Origin: Candidatus Udaeobacter sp.
GTDB lineage: Bacteria > Patescibacteriota > Patescibacteriia > Magasanikbacterales > GWA2-37-8
Reading direction: 5' to 3'
Assembly (NCBI GenBank): GCA_035473115.1
Contig: DATION010000005.1
Coordinates: 4,399-68,398 of the forward strand
DNA length: 64,000 nucleotides
Shown here: positions 21,156-61,490 of the stretch, in pieces
Layout of the letters: each line of letters opens with the position of its first letter
Position numbering within the stretch: the stretch's first letter is position 1
Notes under the pieces: generated by a model
Told to the model about the DNA's origin: nothing
Database searches by the model: none
Seen by the model: only the letters and a program-made list of their open reading frames with translations
Position numbers and translations under genes: made by a program

Positions 21156-21800
21156 ATGAAAAAATTTTACTTCCTATTTCTTCTTGTGGTAATTATGGCC
21201 GGTTTTCTTTTTTATAAACAAATTATTCGCGCCCGGCAAATCACTGTTCACCGAACTACCGCGCCTTTAATATCCAATAATACCACTTTTATAGCAGACT
21301 CCGGCTCTCAACAGACCCTGGGCAACCCCGGAGCAGCTTTGACAGTAGTTGAATTTGTCGATATCAGCTGCGCTCGCTGCCTAACTTTGCATTCAGCCAT
21401 AAAAGACTTCACTACCAAGCACCCTCAAGACATTCGCCTTATTTGGAAAGATGATCCTAAGCCTGGAGTATTATCAAACTACACTCTGGCTCATCAAGCT
21501 GGTTACTGCGCCGGTCAACAAGAAAAATTCTGGCAGTTCCTAGATGCGGCAATCAGCCAACGCAACGATCTATCCGAAACGGGTTTGAAAAAAATTGCTT
21601 TTAGTTTAAATTTAGATTTAGACAAATTTAGCCAATGCCTCAATAGCCCGACCACCAAACAAGCTATTGCCGACTCGGTTCAGGCTGCCGACCAATTAGG
21701 CATCAGATCTCTGCCGGCAATTTTTGTAAACAACAAACTAATCAATACTGACAAAGAAGTAAATATTGAACAGATGCTGGGAAACTTTACCGCCAAATAA
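21156..21800 (+). CDS. DsbA-like thioredoxin-fold thiol:disulfide oxidoreductase (CxxC = CARC), membrane anchored
   Basis: Signal/anchor followed by an ISCARCLTLH CxxC motif. Confidence 0.75.
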   Translation: MKKFYFLFLLVVIMAGFLFYKQIIRARQITVHRTTAPLISNNTTFIADSGSQQTLGNPGAALTVVEFVDISCARCLTLHSAIKDFTTKHPQDIRLIWKDDPKPGVLSNYTLAHQAGYCAGQQEKFWQFLDAAISQRNDLSETGLKKIAFSLNLDLDKFSQCLNSPTTKQAIADSVQAADQLGIRSLPAIFVNNKLINTDKEVNIEQMLGNFTAK

Positions 21801-21801
21801 T

Positions 21802-23265
21802 ATGCAGAAAAAAAATAAACTGCCAATAAAAATATTTTTGATTTTTATCTTTTTTTTATTTGCTAATTTTGTCTTAAAAATAAACCCCAACGCCAATGCT
21901 TCCGAAATAGGCTGCTGCCAAAAAATCGAGTCTACTCTTGTTGGTGATGGGTCTTTTATTCAAAATTCTATTGAACAATGTTGGCATACGAGACCAGAGA
22001 ACTGCACTTCCTACGGGCCAGGTTTCAGCTGGGAATTTAAACCTGAACCCTGTAATACCATCCAAGAGTGTGCCAGCAATACTCAACCAGCTGCCGAAGC
22101 AAAATGTGATGCCAACGGCTGCGAAGATATAACCCAAGCCCCAACTAATTTTTCTAAATTACAAGCTGATGTCTTGGGCAACAAGCGCAAGCCACTGCTA
22201 GAAATAAATATTCCCGGACTTAATTTTTCCGACTTAGCATCCAGCAGTGATGATACTGGCACTTACATCTACGTTCCTTGGATACAAGAATTAATTTCCG
22301 CTTTATACAAATTCGGGATTGCCATAGTCAGCATCGTGGCCGTCGTAATAATAATTATTCAAGGAATGAGAGTTATTGTGTCTGGCGGCGGCGAAGGTAC
22401 AGGTGAGGCTTACAAGAAAATTTTCCAGTCCATAATCGGACTATTTATCGCCTGGGGATCCTATGCTATTTTATATAACATAAATCCGTCTCTGGTCCAA
22501 TTTAAAGCCTTAAAAGTTAAGGTGGTAGAAAGAGTGGAACTGCCAGCAGTGTTGCAAATGCAGACAACTCAGGGAGATACTCTTGCCAAAACGGATAACG
22601 GAGCAACTCCAGGTACATACACCCCAAGATTTTCCAGCTGCCCAATAACTCTAACCAGCGCCTCAAGCAATGACAAGTTATCGGCGCGCACCAAAGAATT
22701 TTTTGAAAAAATAGGTTCTGGATCAACTATCACCGGAGCAACACCGGCCGAACGTGTTTTACAAATCGCCGACGCAGCTGTTGAATGCGGTATAGCTATG
22801 GGATCATGTGGCCGAACGGCCGGAGAAATTTATAATCTAGCTGGAGTAATAACTGCCGCCTATCCTAACTCAAGCTGCCTTTTAACTAATCATGGCTGTG
22901 AACCTCAGGGAGACAAAGAGGTTCATTCCTTGCCAAGAGCTATCATTCTTAACTCATTAGTTACCCATACCGATGGCACAATAGTACCGATAACTGATGT
23001 ACAAAAATTGGTTTTTGGTGAAAATATTCCCGGCTGGCCAGATGCTTGGGCAGACCAATTACAACCCGGGGATGCCATTTGGGTTTATAATGGCAACGCT
23101 TTTGGCGGAAATCATACAGCTATTTTTGTCGGCTGGGGATCTGGCGGTAATGCGCAGGTAATACAAGGCAGCGCTGGCTTGGCAACTTTTAGAGGCTCCC
23201 TCTGTATCAAAAAAGAATGCGGAGATAAAATGCTGCCGATAATAAAAACTTTCCGACCAAAATAA
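21802..23265 (+). CDS. Cys-rich secreted/membrane protein with a two-TM pilin-like module and a C-terminal NlpC/P60- or CHAP-like domain
   Basis: Start trimmed to the ATG at 21802, just after the upstream stop. Signal peptide, Cys-rich segment, then two TM helices (IVSIVAVVIIIIQG ... IIGLFIAWGSYAILYNINP) paralogous to 47776-49248. The C-terminus PGDAIWVYNGNAFGGNHTAIFVGW resembles the His region of NlpC/P60 or CHAP peptidases. Confidence 0.6.
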   Translation: MQKKNKLPIKIFLIFIFFLFANFVLKINPNANASEIGCCQKIESTLVGDGSFIQNSIEQCWHTRPENCTSYGPGFSWEFKPEPCNTIQECASNTQPAAEAKCDANGCEDITQAPTNFSKLQADVLGNKRKPLLEINIPGLNFSDLASSSDDTGTYIYVPWIQELISALYKFGIAIVSIVAVVIIIIQGMRVIVSGGGEGTGEAYKKIFQSIIGLFIAWGSYAILYNINPSLVQFKALKVKVVERVELPAVLQMQTTQGDTLAKTDNGATPGTYTPRFSSCPITLTSASSNDKLSARTKEFFEKIGSGSTITGATPAERVLQIADAAVECGIAMGSCGRTAGEIYNLAGVITAAYPNSSCLLTNHGCEPQGDKEVHSLPRAIILNSLVTHTDGTIVPITDVQKLVFGENIPGWPDAWADQLQPGDAIWVYNGNAFGGNHTAIFVGWGSGGNAQVIQGSAGLATFRGSLCIKKECGDKMLPIIKTFRPK

Positions 23266-27670: not shown

Positions 27671-29419
27671 TTATTCAATCACTCTAAACACTTCCGAAAC
27701 AGTAGTAATTTTTTCTAAAGCTTTTAATAACCCATCCTGCACCATAGTCACCATCCCGCTTTTAACAGCTAGTTCTTGAATAGCATATTCAGAAATTTCA
27801 GCGCTCAGTATGGCTTGTTCAATTTCTTTGTTCATCGTAAAAATTTCATAAATACCTACTCGGCCTTTGTAGCCTAAACCACTGCATTCTTCACAGCCTT
27901 TACCACGATAAAAATGCAAATTTTTTAAATCAACATTTTTCTTTTCTACTGCCGGCAAAGCTTCTAGATTTTTCTTTACCCGCTCCATCTGCTCAGCTGT
28001 GAGCGTTTCTTCTTCCTGACAATATGAACAAATTTTACGCACCAAACGCTGGCCAATTACCGAATTTAAAGCTGGCGCTAGTAAAAACGGCTTTACGCCC
28101 ATAGACAAAAAACGTGGAATAGTTCCCGAAGCGCTATTGGTATGAATGGTAGATAAAATCAGATGGCCAGTTAAAGCGGCTTGAATAGAAATTTCAGCAG
28201 TTTCTAAATCACGGATTTCACCAACCATACAGATATCCGGATCTTGACGCAGCAAGCTGCGCAGACCTTTGGCAAAGGTATAATCATGACTATAATCCAC
28301 CTGGCTTTGATTAATGCCTTCCATTTTAATTTCTACCGGATCTTCTAAGGTAATAATTTTAACACCAGGTTTATTCAAGGTTCGCAAAATTGCATACATG
28401 GTAGTGGTTTTTCCCGAACCAGTCGGACCGGTAGTAATTACCATGCCATTAGGCCGCTCAATTTCTTTTTTCAATTTGGCATAAACATCGCCGCGCAACC
28501 CCAGCTCATCAAAAGTGACTCCTTTTTGGCCGCTATGCAAAATTCTCATTACTACACTTTCACCAAAAACTGTCGGCATGGTGGAGACACGGATATCCAA
28601 GCTGCCAGAAGATAATTTTAAAGTTACTCGCCCATCTTGCGGCCGGTCAGTGATATTTATTTTTAAAGCTGCTAATAATTTGATGCGGGAAATAAATTTT
28701 TTCCATTGTTCTTTGGGCAAAGTTGCGACGTCGTGTAAAACGCCGTCAATACGATAGCGCACGACAATGCCGTTTTCTTCAGCTTCCACATGAATATCAG
28801 AAGAATCTACCTTTAAAGCCGAAGCGATCATTAAAGTCAAAATATCGCTAATAGAAATATTAGCAAACTGTTTTTCTAAACTTCTAAAATCAACCACACC
28901 GGCCTTGAACTTTTCCAGTTCTTCATCAGTAATATTGATATCTTTACTGACCGGTTTAACAATGGGCAAATTAGCATAGAGTTTTATCGCTTTAGCAAAG
29001 CTATTTTCCGAAATTAAGCATATCCCAGCCCGCGCATGATGCCTTTCGCCAATTTGATAAGCCAGCTCTTCAATTTCATTATTGTAATCCACACATCCTA
29101 AACGAATTTCTTCAGGCGAACTAAAAAAACAGATGATCTTTTTTTCTCTGGCTAAATCTTCCGGGATTATTCTTAAAGCTTCAGAACTAATCGGCAAAAC
29201 TGCTAAATCAATATATGGCAAACCAAACGCAGCTGCCTGTTTGGCCACCACTTCTTCTTTGGTCCGCAGATCAATTTCCTGAATTTTTTTAGCAAACTTT
29301 TCCGGAGCATTATTATTGCCATTAGAATTATTAGCGCTTGCTCCAGACGGAGGTACACCTACTACTGGCTTCTTGGCAGATTTACCAAGCAAACTATTGA
29401 TTGAAGGAAAGTCACTCAT
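27671..29419 (-). CDS. pilB: Type IV pilus / type II secretion assembly ATPase (PilB/GspE family)
   Basis: N-terminal GSPII_E domain, Walker A TGPTGSGKTTT, and a C-terminal Cys tetrad. Confidence 0.85.
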   Translation of the reverse strand: MSDFPSINSLLGKSAKKPVVGVPPSGASANNSNGNNNAPEKFAKKIQEIDLRTKEEVVAKQAAAFGLPYIDLAVLPISSEALRIIPEDLAREKKIICFFSSPEEIRLGCVDYNNEIEELAYQIGERHHARAGICLISENSFAKAIKLYANLPIVKPVSKDINITDEELEKFKAGVVDFRSLEKQFANISISDILTLMIASALKVDSSDIHVEAEENGIVVRYRIDGVLHDVATLPKEQWKKFISRIKLLAALKINITDRPQDGRVTLKLSSGSLDIRVSTMPTVFGESVVMRILHSGQKGVTFDELGLRGDVYAKLKKEIERPNGMVITTGPTGSGKTTTMYAILRTLNKPGVKIITLEDPVEIKMEGINQSQVDYSHDYTFAKGLRSLLRQDPDICMVGEIRDLETAEISIQAALTGHLILSTIHTNSASGTIPRFLSMGVKPFLLAPALNSVIGQRLVRKICSYCQEEETLTAEQMERVKKNLEALPAVEKKNVDLKNLHFYRGKGCEECSGLGYKGRVGIYEIFTMNKEIEQAILSAEISEYAIQELAVKSGMVTMVQDGLLKALEKITTVSEVFRVIE

Positions 29420-41999: not shown

Positions 42000-42072
42000 G
42001 CGCCTGTAACTCATCGGTTAGAGTGCCACCCTTATAAGGTGGAAGCAGATGGTTCGATTCCATCCAGGCGCA
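42000..42072 (+). tRNA. tRNA with anticodon UAU (tRNA-Ile, AUA-decoding)
   Basis: Hand-folded cloverleaf: acceptor GCGCCTG/CAGGCGC, D arm ACTC/GAGT, anticodon stem CCACC/GGTGG with loop CTTATAA (U33, UAU, A37), T arm GATGG-TTCGATT-CCATC, discriminator A. No encoded CCA. Confidence 0.75.
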
Positions 42073-42097
42073 CAAAACTTGTATTTTCTCTAAAAAA

Positions 42098-47677: not shown

Positions 47678-47707
47678 ATTATAGCCATTTTTTTAATGTC
47701 TTGTCAA
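47678..47707 (-). promoter_or_regulatory. Near-consensus sigma70 promoter for uvrA (TTGACA, 18-nt spacer, TATAAT)
   Basis: Read on the minus strand. Confidence 0.5.
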
Positions 47708-47730
47708 CCCATAGAGCGCCAATACCAAAA

Positions 47731-47757
47731 AAGCCCCGCCAACTGAATTGGCGAGGC
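47731..47757 (-). terminator. Rho-independent terminator for the 47776-49248 gene (AGCCTCGCCAA/TTGGCGGGGCT plus a T-run)
   Basis: Seen on the minus strand. Confidence 0.55.
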
Positions 47758-47775
47758 TTTCATAAAATAACTTTA

Positions 47776-49248
47776 TTATCGATATTTGCTCTCCCAATAA
47801 GCTTTATTTTTGTTGGTTATTTCATTGCCAGAATCCTCCACGCCAGCCACATCTAAATCTAAACGTGCGCCTTTGATAATTTCATCCAGAGAAAATAAAT
47901 ATTTTTGGTCAACTTTATAAACCGAATCAGCCATAGCTGAGTACCTACCTAAATCAACGCCGCCTTTGCCAATTAAGTGCGGTTTATTACCGACAACAAT
48001 TGAATTTTTTATCATATTAAAATCAGCCACAAACCCTTTGACACCATCTGCTCCGTTGCCAGCTCCAAACTGATCACAACGATGCATGGCTTCGTTGATA
48101 ACATCGGAAGCTTTTGAACTTACCGCATACCGACCTTCAGCCGTTGTGCCTCTGCCATCATCTCCAAACTCAAGAGTGGTAAGAAAATCTGTTAAGGCTT
48201 GATGCGAACTGCCCCAATTATGAACCAGTTGGCTTAGATCTTTACATACTACCATCAGCTGAATCTTGCCTGTTGGTGGACAATCCCATGGACCGCCAAG
48301 ATCACCGGCTTGATTTGATATAGCTCCTTCAAAGAAGCCGCAATTTTTTAAAGGACTGGTATAAGATATTCTGCCTGCCAAGCGCACATCACCACATTCA
48401 TAAAACTTTCCATCTTCAGAAAAACAAGATTTTTGATTACCATTTTCTATCGGACAAATATCACCCCGACAATCAGTCTCGCCGCCATTTTCGGCAAAAA
48501 ATCTGCTGCCGCAAGCAAACTGCGGTTCAGTTTTTGGATTTATCCATTTAAATCCGTCCTCTTTGCCGGCGGCAGCGGCAGTAGAAATTGGCGTAGTCTG
48601 CGTTTCTTTGGGAGCGGCGAACATAAATTTAATTGTGCCACTGTTAGCCCCTTCAATGTCAGCGCAAAACTCCGGCATCAAGCTCTGTGATCTGATCAGC
48701 CAAACCTGCGGCAGACGCAAATTAACTAACGCCGGGTTAATTGTGTTTAGAATAAAATAAGACATGTAAGCGATAAAAAGACCGATAAAAGCTCCGCCAA
48801 TTCTTTTTTTGGCGCTGCTGATAGCTTCGCTATTGCCGCCCGAAGTGATCCATTGCGCTCCGGCGATAACAATCACAATCACGGCCACGATACTGGCAAT
48901 GCTTAAAAGGTATTTATACATTAAAACTATAAATTCGCCGACATTGGAAAATTCTGATTTACCACCAAAAGAAATTTCGGTTTTGCTTGTTCCGGCCGGC
49001 AAACATTTACCCCACTGATCATCGCCTTCGCCGCCTGTGCAAGGAGCAGCCGAAGCGTCAGAAATAAACCCGCTGCTATTGTCAGCCGCCCCAAACTGTT
49101 TCCTAATTGTCTCGCAAGCTTTTCTATGCCAGCAAAAAGGGTTAAGTTCGGGCAACTGACTATTAGGATCGGTAGTGGCGGCGCTGGCCGAAAAAGAGAT
49201 AAAAAAACTAAATAAAATTATTGCGCTGATTGTTATTTTTTTTAACAT
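47776..49248 (-). CDS. Cys-rich secreted/membrane protein; paralog of 21802-23265 across the two-TM pilin-like module, with a different Cys-rich C-terminal domain
   Basis: Signal peptide and Cys-rich segment, then IASIVAVIVIVIAGAQWITSGG...IGLFIAYMSYFILNTINPALV. This is about 50% identical over ~75 aa to the module in the 21802 protein. Confidence 0.6.
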   Translation of the reverse strand: MLKKITISAIILFSFFISFSASAATTDPNSQLPELNPFCWHRKACETIRKQFGAADNSSGFISDASAAPCTGGEGDDQWGKCLPAGTSKTEISFGGKSEFSNVGEFIVLMYKYLLSIASIVAVIVIVIAGAQWITSGGNSEAISSAKKRIGGAFIGLFIAYMSYFILNTINPALVNLRLPQVWLIRSQSLMPEFCADIEGANSGTIKFMFAAPKETQTTPISTAAAAGKEDGFKWINPKTEPQFACGSRFFAENGGETDCRGDICPIENGNQKSCFSEDGKFYECGDVRLAGRISYTSPLKNCGFFEGAISNQAGDLGGPWDCPPTGKIQLMVVCKDLSQLVHNWGSSHQALTDFLTTLEFGDDGRGTTAEGRYAVSSKASDVINEAMHRCDQFGAGNGADGVKGFVADFNMIKNSIVVGNKPHLIGKGGVDLGRYSAMADSVYKVDQKYLFSLDEIIKGARLDLDVAGVEDSGNEITNKNKAYWESKYR

Positions 49249-52484: not shown

Positions 52485-52566
52485 GGGCGAGTGGCGGAAC
52501 TGGTATACGCGTACGTCTCAGAAGCGTATGGAGCAATCCTTGAGGGTTCGAGTCCCTCCTCGCCCA
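52485..52566 (+). tRNA. tRNA-Leu (anticodon CAG), long variable arm
   Basis: Acceptor GGGCGAG/CTCGCCC, anticodon stem TACGT/GCGTA with loop CTCAGAA, long variable arm, T arm GAGGG-TTCGAGT-CCCTC. Confidence 0.8.
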
Positions 52567-52625
52567 CAAGAGCAGTACAAATTTCTTCTCTTAATTTAAA
52601 ATTTAAACCTCTTAATTAATAAAAT

Positions 52626-56105: not shown

Positions 56106-56137
56106 AAACACTCCGCAATTACGGAGTGTTTTTTTAT
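56106..56137. terminator. Bidirectional terminator (A7-ACACTCCG-CAATTA-CGGAGTGT-T7) shared by the dehydrogenase gene and the minus-strand rnpB
   Basis: Seen in the sequence. Confidence 0.7.
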
Positions 56138-56510
56138 AGCATAAGCCGAATTTTGTTCCCAATTTTAATCGGGAGATGATCATTTCTCTGGGTTTGGCGT
56201 TGCCACCAACCTCAAGCGAGCGAACTTTTTACCACGCCCTTCGCGAAGGACGTGGCTCTGCTCTTGCGTTCAAGTAAGGATTTAGACGTTTCACCTTTCG
56301 ACTTATTACCTCCATCGAAAGTTAAGCAATATTTTTGATTTCCCAAAAATTTGAGGTTTGCTTTCTCTTTCTTTTCAAAAAGAGACGTTTCTGTTCGCAC
56401 CTCGAGCCTTGCGGCCGACGGGGGTTACCCGCTACCTTTCTCCTTAGTTTTCACCAAGGGAACGTTCGGACTTTCCTCCCTACCAAGTGACAGGGCGATC
56501 ATCGCTATAC
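56136..56510 (-). ncRNA. rnpB: RNase P RNA
   Basis: The minus-strand reading contains GGGAGGAAAGUCCGAAC (P4/CR-I, compare E. coli GGAGGAAAGUCCGGGC), GGAGAAAGGUAGCGGGUAACC (compare GGUGAAAGGGUGCGGUAAGAGC), and a 3'-terminal ACAAAAUUCGGCUUAUGCUAU (compare ACAGAACCCGGCUUAUCGG). P1 pairing AUAGC/GCUAU. ~375 nt, GC-rich. Confidence 0.7.
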
Positions 56511-56622: not shown

Positions 56623-58044
56623 ATGAAAAAACTGGAACTTGTTTTAGCTTTTATCCAGCTGCCTCTGGACTATATAATGATTACTCTAGCCGGAATAACC
56701 GCTTATACTTTACGTTTTACCGCCACCAGCCAAAATATCCGCCCGGTTTTATTTAATTTAGCTTGGGAAAAATACTGGCCTCTGGTTTTACTTACCGCCT
56801 TAGGCTGGATTATTATTTTTGCTTTGGCCGGACTCTACAATACTTATCCCAATCGCAAGCTGGCCAGTGATCTAACGCGGGTGATCTTTGCCTGTTCGAC
56901 CGGTTTTGCCGCTATTACTATTTACGTTTTTTTTACTCTGCAAAAATTTGATTCCCGTTTTTTAGTCCTGGCCAGCTGGATTTTAGCGATAATTTATGTT
57001 TCTATCGGACGAATTTTAATGAACGGCTTAAAAAAACTTTTATACCGAGCCGGTTTTGGTTTACGACAAACAGTTTTAATCGGCAAAAAAGCTATCTCTG
57101 AACAGATTAAAGAAGCTATCAATTTACGACCGGGTTTGGGTTATAAATTAGTTAGCATCTATGAGCACTTTGATGATCAGACAAGTTTATCTATTTTAAA
57201 AAATAATCCGGATGAGATAATCTTTACTGATCCGAAAGCCAATGAGTTCGAAGTTCTGCAAGCGATAGAATTTGCCAATGAACATCATATTATTTTTAAA
57301 TATTCAGCGGATCTATTTTCTACTATTTCTACCAATATGGCCGTCAGCACAATTGCCGGCATTCCAATTATCGAACTGCGCCTGACTCGCCTGACCGGCT
57401 GGAATAGAATTATCAAAAGATTTTTTGATGTGGTTGGCAGTTTATTTTTAATAATTTTATTTTTACCGCTGCTGGTTGCGATTTATTTAGCAATTATCAT
57501 TGAGACCGGCTTCCCGGTAATTTATAAAAATGAACGCGTCGGCCAAAACGATAGAAAATTTTTCACTTTAAAATTTCGCTCAATGTATAAAAAAGATAGC
57601 ACCGGCCCACAGTTCGGCCAGCAAGGCGAAGAAGCTTTGCGCCAAGAACAAGAACTCATTGCCACACAAAACAGCAAATCCGGCCCGATTTACAAAATAA
57701 AAAATGATCCCCGTATTACTCCGTTTGGCAAATTTATCAGACGCTGGAGCCTGGATGAACTGCCACAATTTTTTAATGTTTTAAAAGGTGAAATGAGCTT
57801 GGTTGGGCCGCGCCCGCATCAGCCGCGCGAAGTAAGCGGCTATGAACGCCGACACAAAATCATCCTGGCCATCAAACCCGGCATTACCGGTTTATCGCAA
57901 ATTTCCGGACGCAGTAATTTAAGCTTTGAAGAAGAGATGAACTTAGATACATTTTATATTGAAAACTGGAGTATATATATGGATTTAATTATTTTATTTA
58001 AAACTCCATTTATTGTTTTAACCAGAAAAGGTTCCATTATTTAG
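56623..58044 (+). CDS. Polyprenyl-phosphate sugar phosphotransferase (bacterial sugar transferase, WbaP/CpsE-like initiating enzyme)
   Basis: Five N-terminal TM helices and a C-terminal catalytic domain (LVGPRPHQPRE...KPGITGLSQISGRSNLSFEE). Confidence 0.85.
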   Translation: MKKLELVLAFIQLPLDYIMITLAGITAYTLRFTATSQNIRPVLFNLAWEKYWPLVLLTALGWIIIFALAGLYNTYPNRKLASDLTRVIFACSTGFAAITIYVFFTLQKFDSRFLVLASWILAIIYVSIGRILMNGLKKLLYRAGFGLRQTVLIGKKAISEQIKEAINLRPGLGYKLVSIYEHFDDQTSLSILKNNPDEIIFTDPKANEFEVLQAIEFANEHHIIFKYSADLFSTISTNMAVSTIAGIPIIELRLTRLTGWNRIIKRFFDVVGSLFLIILFLPLLVAIYLAIIIETGFPVIYKNERVGQNDRKFFTLKFRSMYKKDSTGPQFGQQGEEALRQEQELIATQNSKSGPIYKIKNDPRITPFGKFIRRWSLDELPQFFNVLKGEMSLVGPRPHQPREVSGYERRHKIILAIKPGITGLSQISGRSNLSFEEEMNLDTFYIENWSIYMDLIILFKTPFIVLTRKGSII

Positions 58045-58050
58045 AATAAT

Positions 58051-59169
58051 ATGCGCATTGCTTTGGTACATGATTATCTGGCGCAAGATGGTGGCGCCGA
58101 AAGAGTTTTAAAAACCATGCATGAAATATGGCCGGAAGCGCCAATTTTTGTTTTATTCCATGATAAAAATAAAATAAAATTTTTTGATGACAAAAATATT
58201 CAAGAATCTTTTTTAGCCAACCTGCCTTTTAGCAACTCGTTTTATCAATGGTATCTGCCCTGGATGCCGCTGGCTACCGAACAGCACAACTTAAAAGATT
58301 TTGACGTGGTAATTTCTACGGCTAGCATGTTTGCCAAAGGTGTAATTACCGGGCCAAACACACTGCATATTTCTTACTGCCATACACCGCCCCGCTTTTT
58401 GTGGGCCGACAACCACAACTACATTGCTGATTTAAAACAAAATAATTTCATTAAATTTATCTTGCCTCATTTTATTCATCGACTGCGAATTTGGGACAAA
58501 ATGAGCGTAGACCGAGTAGACCATTTCGTGGCCAATTCACGCACTGTTCAACAAAGAATCAATAAATATTACCGCCGTGAAAGCGAAGTGATTTATCCTC
58601 CGGTCGAACTTACCTCCTGCTCTTTGCAAAAAACCGGCGACTACTATGCCGCTGGCGGCAGACTGGTTGGCTACAAAAGGTTTGATTTGATTGTTAAAGC
58701 TTTTAACCGGCTAAAATGGCCGCTAAAAATTTTTGGCGACGGGCCGGAACTGAAAAAACTTAAAAAAATAGCCAAAGATAATATAGAATTTTTGGGACAA
58801 ATTTCTGATGAAGAAAAATACGGTATTCTGGCCGGCGCGCGCGCCTTTATCCATCCCCAACTGGAAGATTTTGGCATTACAGCCGTAGAGGCGATGGCTT
58901 GCGGCCGGCCGGTAATTGCTTTTTCTCAGGGCGGAGCTACCGAAACGGTTGTTAACAATGAAACCGGAGTATTTTTTCATGCGCAAACTTGGGAGTCTTT
59001 GCTGGACAAACTTTTGCATTTTAATTATGAAAATTGGGACAGCGGTAAAATCCGCGAACAGGCCGCCAAATTTGGCTCAATATACTTTAAAACCAACCTG
59101 CAAAAATATGTGGCCGACCGATACGAAGAATTCAGTAAAGGATTTAATCAGCAATCTCTAATCGGTTAA
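58051..59169 (+). CDS. Glycosyltransferase family 4
   Basis: EDFGITAVEAMACGRPVIAF (E-x7-E region). Confidence 0.8.
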   Translation: MRIALVHDYLAQDGGAERVLKTMHEIWPEAPIFVLFHDKNKIKFFDDKNIQESFLANLPFSNSFYQWYLPWMPLATEQHNLKDFDVVISTASMFAKGVITGPNTLHISYCHTPPRFLWADNHNYIADLKQNNFIKFILPHFIHRLRIWDKMSVDRVDHFVANSRTVQQRINKYYRRESEVIYPPVELTSCSLQKTGDYYAAGGRLVGYKRFDLIVKAFNRLKWPLKIFGDGPELKKLKKIAKDNIEFLGQISDEEKYGILAGARAFIHPQLEDFGITAVEAMACGRPVIAFSQGGATETVVNNETGVFFHAQTWESLLDKLLHFNYENWDSGKIREQAAKFGSIYFKTNLQKYVADRYEEFSKGFNQQSLIG

Positions 59170-59171
59170 TT

Positions 59172-60371
59172 ATGAAAAAGATCGGCATTGATATTCGTTG
59201 CTTAATGTCTCCGCTGCGCGCCGGCGTGGGTGAATATACCCACGAACTGCTGAGCGCTATTTTTAAGCTTGATAAAGAAAACCAGTATTGGCTTTTTTAT
59301 AATTCCCATACAGATGTCTTTGCCCATATTCCACTTTGGTCAGGAAGCAATATTCATTATGTAGCCACCAAATGGCCGAACAAACTATTTAACGCTTTTA
59401 TAAAAATATTTGGCTGGCCAAAACTGGATAAATTAATTTCCCGCAACGGCAAGCTGGATTATTTTTTTTCACCCAACTTTAATTTTACGGCCTTATCCAA
59501 AGATACAAAAAATATTTTAACTGTCCATGATTTATCATTTAAATTTTTTCCACAATTTTTCTCCTTAAAACAAAAATTATGGCACTGGGCAATAAACCCA
59601 AAAAAACAGTGTCAACAAGCCAGTTTTATAATTACTCCTTCGGAAAATACCAAACGGGATATTGTGGATTATTATAAAATCCCAGCAGAAAAAATAAAAG
59701 TTGCGGGCGGCGGTTTATCGGGAATTTTCGTCTGTCATTCTGAGCGTAGCGAAGAATCCCTTAAACCAAGCCAAAGGGATCCTTCGGTCGCTTCACTCTC
59801 TCAGGATGACATACGAAAAAAATATAATTTACCAAATAAATTTATTCTCTGTTTGGGAGCGGTTGAATCGCGAAAAAATATCATTGGCTTAATTGAAGCT
59901 TTTGAAAAATTTTCCAAAACTACAACGGGCTATTCTTTGGTAATTGCCGGCAGTGGCCGAGGCTGGAAAAATAAAAAAATATACGCTCGAGCTTTGGCTT
60001 CACCGCTGCGCAATAATATCGAATTTATCGGTTATGTGGATGCGCAAGATAAGCCAACTCTATACTCTATGTCTGAACTGTTTGTTTATCCAAGTTTTTA
60101 TGAAGGATTTGGTTTTCCGGTTTTGGAGGCCATGGCCTGCGGTGTGCCGGTAATAACTTCTAACCGATCTTCTTTGCCGGAAATTACCGAAGGCGCAGCC
60201 TATTTAATTAACCCCAACCGCCCAGCTGAAATCGCTGCAGCAATTACAAAACTGATTTCTGACACAAAGCTACGAGAATATTTTATAAAAAAAGGACTAG
60301 AGCAGGTTAAGAAATTTAGTTGGCAAGCCGCAGCTCAAAAATGGCTAGATATTTTAAATAAATCAACTTAA
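59172..60371 (+). CDS. Glycosyltransferase family 4 carrying an in-frame palindromic-element insertion
   Basis: EGFGFPVLEAMACGVPVITS. An extra ~27 aa (VCHSERSEESLKPSQRDPSVASL) sits between the two Rossmann halves and is encoded by repeat copy 4. Confidence 0.8.
   Translation: MKKIGIDIRCLMSPLRAGVGEYTHELLSAIFKLDKENQYWLFYNSHTDVFAHIPLWSGSNIHYVATKWPNKLFNAFIKIFGWPKLDKLISRNGKLDYFFSPNFNFTALSKDTKNILTVHDLSFKFFPQFFSLKQKLWHWAINPKKQCQQASFIITPSENTKRDIVDYYKIPAEKIKVAGGGLSGIFVCHSERSEESLKPSQRDPSVASLSQDDIRKKYNLPNKFILCLGAVESRKNIIGLIEAFEKFSKTTTGYSLVIAGSGRGWKNKKIYARALASPLRNNIEFIGYVDAQDKPTLYSMSELFVYPSFYEGFGFPVLEAMACGVPVITSNRSSLPEITEGAAYLINPNRPAEIAAAITKLISDTKLREYFIKKGLEQVKKFSWQAAAQKWLDILNKST
59733..59811 (+). repeat. 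Palindromic repeat family 1, copy 4, inserted in-frame inside the GT4 coding sequence
   Basis: TGTCATTCTGAG...GAAGAATCCCTT...AAGGGATCCTTC...CTCAGGATGACA. Its terminal stems show compensatory changes relative to copies 1-3 (CCGA/TCGG becomes CTGA/TCAG). Confidence 0.8.
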
Positions 60372-60377
60372 AATTTT

Positions 60378-61490
60378 ATGCCAAAAATCCTCATTCTTCA
60401 CGACTATTTCCTCTATAAAGGCGGCGGCGAAAGGCTCGTAATTAGCCTAGCCAAAAACCTTGGCGCAGATATTGCTACGGCTTTTATCGCCAAAGACGCT
60501 TTTGATCCGCGAGAGAGTGATATAAAAACAATTGAGCTATACAAAGAAAAACCTTGGTCGCGCCTACCCGGATTTAGGTATCTGCAAGTACAATTTTCTT
60601 TTTTATTTAAAACCAAATTTGCTCAAAATTACGACACTATAATCTATAGCGGCGATTGCCTCATAGCGCTTTTACGATTACAAAATAAAAAAAATATCGC
60701 CTATATGCATACTCCGCCGCGGCACTTATACGATGCTTATGAAGAACGCTTGAGTTCATACCCGCTCTGGAAAAAAATAATCTTCGTACCGTTTGTTTTA
60801 TTCAATCGCTGGCGTTTTAAATTTTTAGCCACAAAACTAGATACAATTGTTACTAACTCCAAAAATACCCAAGCTAGAATAAAAACATATTTGGGGTTAA
60901 ATTCAGTCGTAGTTTATCCGCCTTGTGATACTTTGCCATTTAAAAATCTTGGCAACGAAGGATACTTCTTTTCTTGGGCGCGGCTGTATCCGATTAAAAG
61001 AGTCGATAAAATTGTCGAAGCGTTTATTGGTTTGCCGGATAAAAAATTAATTATCGCTTCTAGCGGCCCGGATCTGGAAAAAATCAAAAGCCTGGCCGCT
61101 GGCCACCCAAATATTACAATTCTTGGCTGGATAAATGATGAACAATTATTAAATTACCTCGGAAAATGTCTAGCCACCATTTATATCCCAATCCGCGAAG
61201 ATTTTGGCATGAGTGCGGTTGAGTCTATGCAAGCCGGTAAACCGGTAATTGGCGTAGCTGAAGGCGGATTATTAGAAATTATTAATGACAACAAAAACGG
61301 CCTGCTGCTTGAACCAGATTTTGATTTAGCCAACTTACGCGAAACAATTAACCAAATGACTCCGAATTTGGCTAAAACAATGGAAAATAACTGCTATGAA
61401 ACAGCCAAAAAATTTAGCGAACAAACTTTTATTACAGGCATGAAAAATGTCATCTATGCACATAGTCCATTATCCAAAAAAGTGGTATAA
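60378..61490 (+). CDS. Glycosyltransferase family 4
   Basis: EDFGMSAVESMQAGKPVIGV. Confidence 0.8.
   Translation: MPKILILHDYFLYKGGGERLVISLAKNLGADIATAFIAKDAFDPRESDIKTIELYKEKPWSRLPGFRYLQVQFSFLFKTKFAQNYDTIIYSGDCLIALLRLQNKKNIAYMHTPPRHLYDAYEERLSSYPLWKKIIFVPFVLFNRWRFKFLATKLDTIVTNSKNTQARIKTYLGLNSVVVYPPCDTLPFKNLGNEGYFFSWARLYPIKRVDKIVEAFIGLPDKKLIIASSGPDLEKIKSLAAGHPNITILGWINDEQLLNYLGKCLATIYIPIREDFGMSAVESMQAGKPVIGVAEGGLLEIINDNKNGLLLEPDFDLANLRETINQMTPNLAKTMENNCYETAKKFSEQTFITGMKNVIYAHSPLSKKVV

Follow-up and report, generated by a model that had tools for sequence, protein, structure and literature searches.

The DNA analysed here is a stretch of 64,000 nucleotides from contig DATION010000005.1 (assembly GCA_035473115.1), referred to below as the window, which carries two cassettes of two genes each. 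In both cassettes, a gene for a DsbA-like oxidoreductase (DsbA1 or DsbA2) is followed in the same orientation by a gene for a cysteine-rich protein (X1 or X2), after a gap of 1 nt in cassette 1 and of 21 nt in cassette 2 (Table 1). The presence of two cassettes with the same order and architecture had been proposed from inspection of the sequence (the original prediction), and was confirmed at the positions given. Public gene calls use the same start codon for X1, the ATG at 21802, and X1 is identical to P0001, as X2 is to the public protein P0074.

X1 contains 15 cysteines (3.1%) and X2 14 (2.9%), against 0.77% in the 45 other open reading frames (ORFs) of the window. This confirms the description of both proteins as Cys-rich and corresponds to an enrichment of about 4-fold (binomial p ~8e-6 for X1 and ~4e-5 for X2). 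All the cysteines lie outside a hydrophobic hairpin module, which is shared by the two proteins and is itself Cys-free. The similarity between X1 and X2 is confined to this module, with 38 of 88 residues identical (43%, BLASTP E 4e-10), a slightly lower identity over a slightly longer segment than the value first reported (about 50% over ~75 residues), and the C-terminal domains are unrelated, as had been predicted. DsbA1 and DsbA2 are 25% identical (E 6e-17), and for the two DsbA types the identity is ~20% between types and 37-40% within each of them. No DNA similarity was found between cassettes 1 and 2. A recent segmental duplication is ruled out by this lack of DNA similarity together with the low identity of the DsbA types. 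The duplication originally proposed therefore holds as paralogy and not as a recent event, and the sequences indicate that the cassettes are ancient paralogues.

Table 1. Position and properties of the two cassettes, their domains, and other features of the window
Feature	Length	Position	Strand	Description
DsbA1	214 aa	21156-21800	+	DsbA/BdbD-type thioredoxin fold, N-terminal membrane anchor, CARC active site
X1	487 aa	21802-23265	+	signal peptide, Cys-rich N-ectodomain, PF18895 hairpin, NlpC/P60-like C-domain
X1 signal peptide	aa 1-33	21802-21900	+	hydrophobic aa 5-31; putative cleavage ANA/SE (between A and S), read from the sequence by eye
X1 N-ectodomain	aa 34-150	21901-22251	+	8 Cys: 38, 39, 60, 68, 84, 90, 102, 107
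X1 module	aa 151-250	22252-22551	+	beta-hairpin lead-in, helix 159-193, SGGGEG..K loop, helix 199-227, INPSLV
X1 C-domain	aa 270-487	22609-23262	+	NlpC/P60-like, papain fold; putative nucleophile C336 (SCGRTAG), putative His H438 (GGNHTAIFVGW)
DsbA2	240 aa	49270-49992	-	DsbA/BdbD-type thioredoxin fold, N-terminal membrane anchor, CPFT active site (monothiol)
X2	490 aa	47776-49248	-	signal peptide, 4-Cys N-ectodomain, PF18895 hairpin, 300-aa Cys-rich C-domain
X2 N-ectodomain	aa 24-92	48973-49179	-	four invariant Cys: C39, C45, C70, C82 (58-sequence alignment)
X2 module	aa 93-193	48670-48972	-	helices 103-135 and 140-169, SGGNSE..KKR loop, INPALV
X2 C-ectodomain	aa 194-490	47779-48669	-	10 Cys; invariant C195, C246, C260, C265, C275, C285
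Terminator-like hairpin		47729-47761	-	15-bp stem and T-run, directly past the X2 stop; consensus scan only
Perfect sigma-70 consensus		47678-47707	-	TTGACA-18-TATAAT, upstream of uvrA; consensus scan only
Membrane-anchored protein	294 aa	18880-19764	+	no Pfam or PHROG match
Membrane-anchored protein	409 aa	19842-21071	+	no Pfam or PHROG match
PilB/T2SSE ATPase		27671-29419	-	Pfam T2SSE, 399 bits
Polytopic membrane protein	321 aa	29432-30397	-	no Pfam match
Cys-rich protein	175 aa	36284-36811	+	signal peptide, 8 Cys (4.6%), directly after gyrB, no Pfam match
tRNA-Ile		42000-42073	+	anticodon TAT
tRNA-Leu		52485-52567	+	CAG
RNase P RNA class A		56132-56508	-	105.6 bits (gathering score 100)
Surface-polysaccharide locus		56623-61490	+	one Bac_transf sugar transferase and three GT4 glycosyltransferases

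To characterize the shared module, we compared AlphaFold2 (AF2) models and family profiles. In both X1 and X2 the models show a beta-hairpin that leads into two long helices. The SGG-containing loop between these helices is followed by Lys/Arg residues. Together with the N-terminal hydrophobic segments, this gives the two proteins the signal peptide and the pair of long hydrophobic helices with a short loop that are found in the pilins of Pfam family PF18895 (T4SS_pilin, where T4SS stands for type IV secretion system). PF18895 is matched by X2 with 26.2 bits (E 8.4e-6, aa 111-169) and by X1 with 22.2 bits (E 1.5e-4, aa 160-218), the gathering cut-off being 26.6 bits. Counting relatives as matching at E<=1e-3, the family is found in all 58 full-length X2 relatives (best 5.2e-10) and in 52 of the 73 X1 relatives (best 7.3e-8). 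Many relatives carry a precomputed PF18895 match, and some are named 'pilin' or 'TrbC/VirB2 family protein' by NCBI. The TrbC family (PF04956) is matched by X2 with 19.5 bits (E 1.1e-3, cut-off 27.9) and, at E<=1e-3, by 4/58 X2 relatives (best 5.6e-6), and an E of 6.7e-5 is also seen among the relatives. Membership of the module in PF18895 is well supported by these comparisons, and homology to classical VirB2 would rest mainly on Pfam-level links. The pilin-like nature of the module, originally presented as an architectural analogy, is thus borne out as homology within PF18895: the known family that the module matches is T4SS_pilin, and not one unrelated to pili or secretion. The arrangement, which the original prediction could not place, is placeable within the VirB2-like pilin family of Patescibacteria T4SS (PMC12102498).

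At E<=1e-3, a search of 1.84 billion proteins with the module profile retrieved 42,055 representative clusters, which points to a very large family. Profile searches of PDB sequences with the module, X1-family and X2-family alignments returned chance matches only, PHROGs gave no match, and the NCBIfam matches were all below threshold, to 'pilin-like' families of Mycoplasma integrative and conjugative elements (E 0.013 and 0.088). Four of the proteins retrieved (P0201, P0204, P0196 and P0206) contain 6-11 tandem copies of the module in a single polypeptide, for example 11 stretches in 1147 aa, and are apparent 'poly-pilin' proteins, mostly Cys-poor. The mean column identity of the module is 54%, an INPxLV motif and invariant Gly and Pro positions are present, and the flanking domains are unrelated. 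Since the module is much better conserved than the domains around it, its constraint seems to exceed what a passive anchor needs and suggests a specific interaction.

The two proteins differ in what the hairpin carries. In X1, the N-ectodomain is variable among relatives and is modelled by AF2 with low confidence (predicted local distance difference test, pLDDT, below 50). The C-domain, previously described as merely Cys-rich, has a fold similar to solved NlpC/P60 or CHAP domains, and the model indicates an NlpC/P60-like cysteine peptidase that would act on peptidoglycan. No match to Pfam NLPC_P60 or CHAP was found at E<=1, and the PDB profile search was likewise negative. In the model C336 precedes a helix (aa 338-346) and H438 lies within a strand (aa 437-445). 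The two residues reach 90% conservation or more in the X1-family alignment and would form the catalytic pair. With C336, the putative nucleophile, left out of the count, X1 has even numbers of cysteines. A holin-endolysin-like reading of X1, as two transmembrane helices plus a hydrolase, was ruled out by the Sec signal peptide, the N-ectodomain, the homology to PF18895 and the lack of a phage context.

The NlpC/P60-like head is present in only 28 of the 73 X1 relatives, the others keeping the pre-module segment and the hairpin. Alternative heads belong to the families Peptidase_C39_2 (11 relatives), Amidase_2 (6), SLT (5), GDSL lipase/esterase (3), VanY (3), M23 (3), C70 (3) and M15_4 (2). Different heads are found in one conserved slot of the gene order, PGM-ClpB-U-U-DsbA1-X1-RadA-RecG, which holds a C39_2 head in locus L131 and an SLT head in locus L133. 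Such swapping fits variable targets, like host walls or the local clearing of the wall for a surface machine, better than it fits a housekeeping autolysin.

X2 is a single-copy, syntenic and phylum-wide gene. Its product has an N-terminal hydrophobic leader with an AxA site (read from the sequence by eye), and its AF2 model has a pLDDT of 85.2 and a predicted template modelling score (pTM) of 0.74, with the C-domain modelled confidently. No solved structural relative of this domain was found. Four N-terminal and six C-terminal cysteines are invariant across 58 relatives. The C-domain is conserved in the phylum, looks non-enzymatic and probably serves binding or structure.

Both oxidoreductases score well above the cut-offs of Pfam Thioredoxin_4 (63.4 bits for DsbA1 and 82.7 bits for DsbA2, cut-off 23.2) and DSBA (49 and 57.3 bits, cut-off 25.6), and by these profiles they are clear members of the DsbA family (PF01323 / PF13462) with the DsbA-type helical insertion. 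Solved relatives in the PDB are 3gyk, 7rgv and 6eez for DsbA1, and for DsbA2 they include BdbD 3eu3 (E 5.8e-10) and Staphylococcus aureus DsbA 3bci. Taken together, the solved relatives of the two proteins include ScsC besides Bacillus subtilis BdbD and S. aureus DsbA. At its N-terminus, each protein carries one hydrophobic anchor (aa 1-26 in DsbA1, aa 5-37 in DsbA2), from which an extracytoplasmic, outward-facing orientation is predicted. Original expectations of a CxxC motif in each cassette hold for DsbA1 (CARC) and fail for DsbA2, where the active site is CPFT, while the assignment to the DsbA family is correct for both. In DsbA2-type proteins the first Cys of the site is always kept, the motif being CPxC in 43/78 orthologues and CPx[S/T] in 35/78 (loci L003-L081). 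The closest relatives of the DsbA2 of the window all have Thr, forming a monothiol DsbA lineage beside a 14-Cys client. The DsbA1-type orthologues are mostly CxxC, except for five that have no active-site Cys at all (L111, L114, L115, L118, L119), whose partners, encoded directly downstream, are still Cys-rich. These five may be redox-dead, TraF-like partners.

To follow the association of the two genes, we collected 80 genome loci from distinct Magasanikbacteria species, found with the X2-family alignment, and 48 metagenome loci found with the X1-family alignment (128 loci in total, 1.72 Mb). A DsbA-like ORF lies directly upstream of the module gene, on the same strand, in 77/77 X2-type loci with upstream DNA and in 32/33 evaluable X1-type loci. 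Seen from the other side, a module gene comes directly after each of the 112 DsbA-like ORFs in the 128 loci, the median gaps being 3-10 bp, so that the adjacency proposed for the window is conserved in other genomes. Five further module genes are second copies in tandem, two module proteins being encoded behind one DsbA gene in L015, L038, L082, L084 and L110.

These counts could in principle reflect inherited gene order without functional coupling, sampled in one strongly syntenic phylum. The flanking genes indeed come close to the DsbA gene in their conservation: uvrA is downstream of X2 in 73/80 loci and secG is upstream in 61/80. However, there are two paralogous pairs at two loci of one genome, ~12 loci have kept the pairing although their upstream synteny (secG/SBP) is broken (e.g. 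L029, L030, L032, L036, L059), the gaps of 1-21 nt suggest co-translation, and the cysteines are confined to the exported domains. In the window, moreover, the terminator-like hairpin and the promoter consensus delimit exactly two genes, and from this consensus scan DsbA2-X2 appears to be marked off from uvrA as its own transcription unit. The two paralogous pairs, the survival of the pairing where synteny is broken and the distribution of the cysteines argue against a purely historical adjacency, which we consider highly unlikely.

Taken together, these data lead us to propose, as the explanation that we hold to be probable, that X1 and X2 are surface proteins, exported by Sec and stabilised by disulfides, with a VirB2-like hairpin anchor and both ends outside the cell, each folded with the help of a dedicated DsbA paralogue. 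In the monoderm host, an ultrasmall bacterium of the candidate phyla radiation (CPR) belonging to the Magasanikbacteria, the signal peptide of X1 and X2 would be cleaved after Sec export, and the hairpin would insert in the membrane with its SGG..K/R loop on the cytoplasmic side, from which it follows that the N- and C-terminal Cys-rich domains would both be outside. The upstream DsbA, membrane-anchored and outward-facing, would be co-transcribed and probably translationally coupled with its partner, and would fold the ectodomains of its partner by making or rearranging disulfides, by holdase action, or by both. X1 would then present an NlpC/P60-type peptidoglycan peptidase from a head-swapping locus. 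The original prediction is thus supported in part, its pilin-like module and DsbA adjacency being upheld and other parts amended. A DsbA that just oxidises its partner is too simple a picture for the active sites described above.

Several observations weigh against this proposal. A simple oxidase mechanism cannot explain everything, given the CPFT site of DsbA2 in the window, the CPx[S/T] sites of its orthologues and the five Cys-less DsbA1-type proteins, and neither DsbB nor VKOR was found among the window ORFs scanned. Because such DsbA2 and DsbA1 types stand beside Cys-rich clients, the partner DsbA is probably not merely an oxidase, and isomerase, mixed-disulfide or holdase roles are likely from the sequences. 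The adjacency counts are not independent, since both cassettes lie in phylum-wide synteny blocks, and they refer to the DsbA genes of loci selected via the module gene. One locus, L116, has a Cys-rich module protein without an upstream DsbA, and belongs to a different, higher-GC organism. As for the module, X1 and X2 both score just below the PF18895 gathering threshold, and an hhalign comparison of the module alignment with eight plasmid MPF_T VirB2/TrbC proteins was weak (probability 8.5%, E 0.004), with equivalent helices aligned. Finally, no VirB4, VirD4 or VirB6 gene is present in the 64-kb window, and in related loci none was found up to 8-10 kb from the cassettes. Candidates for large VirB4-like ORFs near related cassettes turned out to encode NUDIX-domain, LytR and DUF4012 proteins.

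The surroundings of the cassettes, which lie among housekeeping genes (clpB, radA, recG, uvrA, secG and RNase J), bear on a plainer explanation, in which the hairpin is a mere membrane anchor, X1 an autolysin and X2 a structural protein, with the DsbAs supplying disulfides and no link to a T4SS or pilus. It would account for this location, for the lack of a T4SS gene within 8-40 kb and for X2 being single-copy, syntenic and phylum-wide. It also agrees with the weak hhalign result against true VirB2 and with the published T4SS inventory: the X2 orthologue KKQ41219.1 is encoded in genome GW2011_GWA2_37_8 (Magasanikbacteria), and is not among the VirB2 entries of Table S3 (PMC12102498). The same table, however, lists VirB4, TrsD, VirB3 and coupling proteins for this genome, so that at least one cassette-bearing genome has VirB4-TrsD-VirB3 elsewhere, and Magasanikbacteria do possess T4SS. 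Conservation of the module is far above what a passive anchor needs, the hairpin is homologous to PF18895 with some relatives matching TrbC, and X1-slot heads from at least eight enzyme families would be unusual for a housekeeping autolysin. We regard a mere anchor as unlikely.

At the opposite end, X1 and X2 could be true polymerising pilins, forming with phospholipid a VirB2-type filament that is built by the CPR T4SS and carries the ectodomains along its length or at its tip, the DsbAs acting as assembly factors like TraF. The homology to PF18895 and TrbC speaks for this, as does the finding that Southlakia cannot do without an array of VirB2-like pilins (PMC10633639, PMC12857230), and the redox-dead DsbA1 orthologues would parallel a TraF without CXXC. 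The size of a stand-alone pilin is nevertheless not found here, as the module is flanked on either side by further domains in X1 (487 aa) and X2 (490 aa). To our knowledge, ectodomains of ~120 and 240-300 aa far exceed anything tolerated in VirB2/TraA packing. There is also no genomic link to virB4, and the window has no short pilin gene, X1 and X2 being the only two module matches. We consider this explanation quite improbable.

A further scheme, which we find improbable, is that a VirB4/VirB6 T4SS encoded elsewhere uses the hairpin as a delivery handle, extracting X1- and X2-type subunits from the membrane into a conjugative-type filament or onto its tip or base. If so, the swappable wall-degrading enzymes of the X1 slot and the conserved binding domain of X2 would make up an 'armed pilus' with which the epibiont could breach or grip the host envelope, and the DsbA paralogues, of which some are redox-dead, would assist assembly as TraF-like chaperones instead of acting as general oxidases. 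The PilB-type ATPase of the window, which had been mentioned as part of the context, belongs to the machinery of type IV pili or type II secretion systems (T2SS) and is silent on the VirB2-like module. A link between it and the cassettes was rejected for this reason. Next to this ATPase is a gene for a 321-aa polytopic membrane protein, which is not recognisable as PilC. Our preferred explanation remains that of surface proteins anchored by a VirB2-like hairpin and folded by their own DsbA.

Other features of the window were also noted. The NCBI label of the source genome, 'Candidatus Udaeobacter sp.', and the title 'uncultured Gammaproteobacteria bacterium' of many related GTDB records are probably wrong, as Magasanikbacteria/Patescibacteria are indicated both by the gene content and by all relatives with informative names. 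Between clpB and DsbA1 there are two co-directional genes, separated by short gaps, for the membrane-anchored proteins of 294 and 409 aa. In L082 and L131-L133 this slot is filled by proteins of about the same length, and the two proteins of the window may belong to the cassette-1 unit. The 175-aa protein encoded after gyrB is, from its sequence, likely another disulfide-bonded exoprotein. The window further contains an RNase P RNA, two tRNA genes and, judging from its transferase genes, a surface-polysaccharide locus (Table 1).

The role of the T4SS of Patescibacteria, which is essential, has been called 'completely unknown' (PMC11665869). The cassettes show that a pilin-like module occurs also inside large Cys-rich proteins, probably disulfide-bonded and at the cell surface, and the hydrolase-swapping slot makes X1-type proteins concrete candidates for enzymes that open host walls or the cell's own wall. 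A private DsbA for each of these proteins would tie oxidative folding to the surface biology of the epibiont. Surveys based on hidden Markov model (HMM) coverage and proximity to virB4 miss proteins of the X1 and X2 types, so that the VirB2-like repertoire of CPR bacteria and their apparent lack of VirB1 may need to be re-read.

The cassettes combine known families (PF18895, DsbA and NlpC/P60) in an arrangement that we did not find described in the literature: the module within ~490-aa proteins with two ectodomains, each with its private DsbA, with swappable hydrolase heads, and apart from a T4SS locus. A full-text literature search found no paper joining Patescibacteria, DsbA and pilin. The closest described proteins are the VirB2-like pilins of Patescibacteria T4SS (Wang et al. 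2023, PMC10633639; Quinonero-Coronel et al. 2025, PMC12102498), which belong to PF18895 and have in common with X1 and X2 the signal peptide, the two-helix hairpin with its short loop and the CPR origin. As described, these pilins are short and stand-alone, often encoded in arrays of 2-11 genes adjoining virB4, whereas X1 and X2 have ~490 aa, large Cys-rich domains flanking the hairpin and a DsbA gene upstream, and are away from virB4. The 2025 study (PMC12102498) makes no mention of DsbA, disulfides or pilin-hydrolase fusions, and the long DsbA-paired forms are not described there. With the TrbC/VirB2 pilins of PF04956, such as Agrobacterium tumefaciens VirB2 and RP4 TrbC, the module shares the topology and length of the hairpin. 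X1 and X2 differ from them by their large extra domains, by the monoderm host and by having no evidence for cyclisation or processing signals.

The slot of X1 resembles in another respect the loci of polymorphic toxins and effectors, in which a constant N-terminal delivery module is followed by swapped C-terminal heads. In X1 the constant part is the pre-module segment with the hairpin, and the C-terminal enzymes differ. Unlike polymorphic toxins, the X1 slot has no evident immunity gene, its heads are wall hydrolases instead of nucleases or deaminases, and it is chromosomal and syntenic.

For the oxidoreductases, two comparisons can be made, both of which also provide precedents for the proposed role in assembly. 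MdbA, which has a role in pilus assembly in Actinomyces (PMC5478893), and BdbD are DsbA-family proteins that are anchored in the membrane, face outward and fold surface or pilus proteins after export, as proposed for DsbA1 and DsbA2. MdbA and BdbD occur once per genome and act as general oxidases together with VKOR or BdbC (PMC5478893; 3eu3), whereas here there are two paralogues, each tied to one client gene, one of them monothiol, and no VKOR or DsbB in the window. In the F plasmid, TrbB, with a CXXC motif, is an isomerase/chaperone, and TraF, which has the same fold without CXXC, is needed for pilus extension (PMC11315126). Both systems thus have dedicated thioredoxin-fold partners of VirB2-type proteins with redox-inactive members, although TraF and TrbB are DsbC-like and periplasmic, whereas DsbA1 and DsbA2 are of the DsbA/BdbD type, with a helical insert and a membrane anchor. 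DsbA2 matches the Pfam TraF family (PF13728) with E 0.025 and 14.8 bits (cut-off 23) over only 33 aa and is not a member, and by this analogy its resemblance to TraF would be functional rather than familial.

Wall hydrolases tethered to the membrane in a secretion or pilus context are also represented by VirB1 and, in Gram-positive systems, by PrgK/TcpG/TrsG (as cited in PMC12102498), with SLT, CHAP/NlpC-P60 or M23 domains. These are encoded inside T4SS operons and have a plain transmembrane anchor, whereas in X1 the hydrolase is fused to a pilin-like module and is encoded away from virB4.

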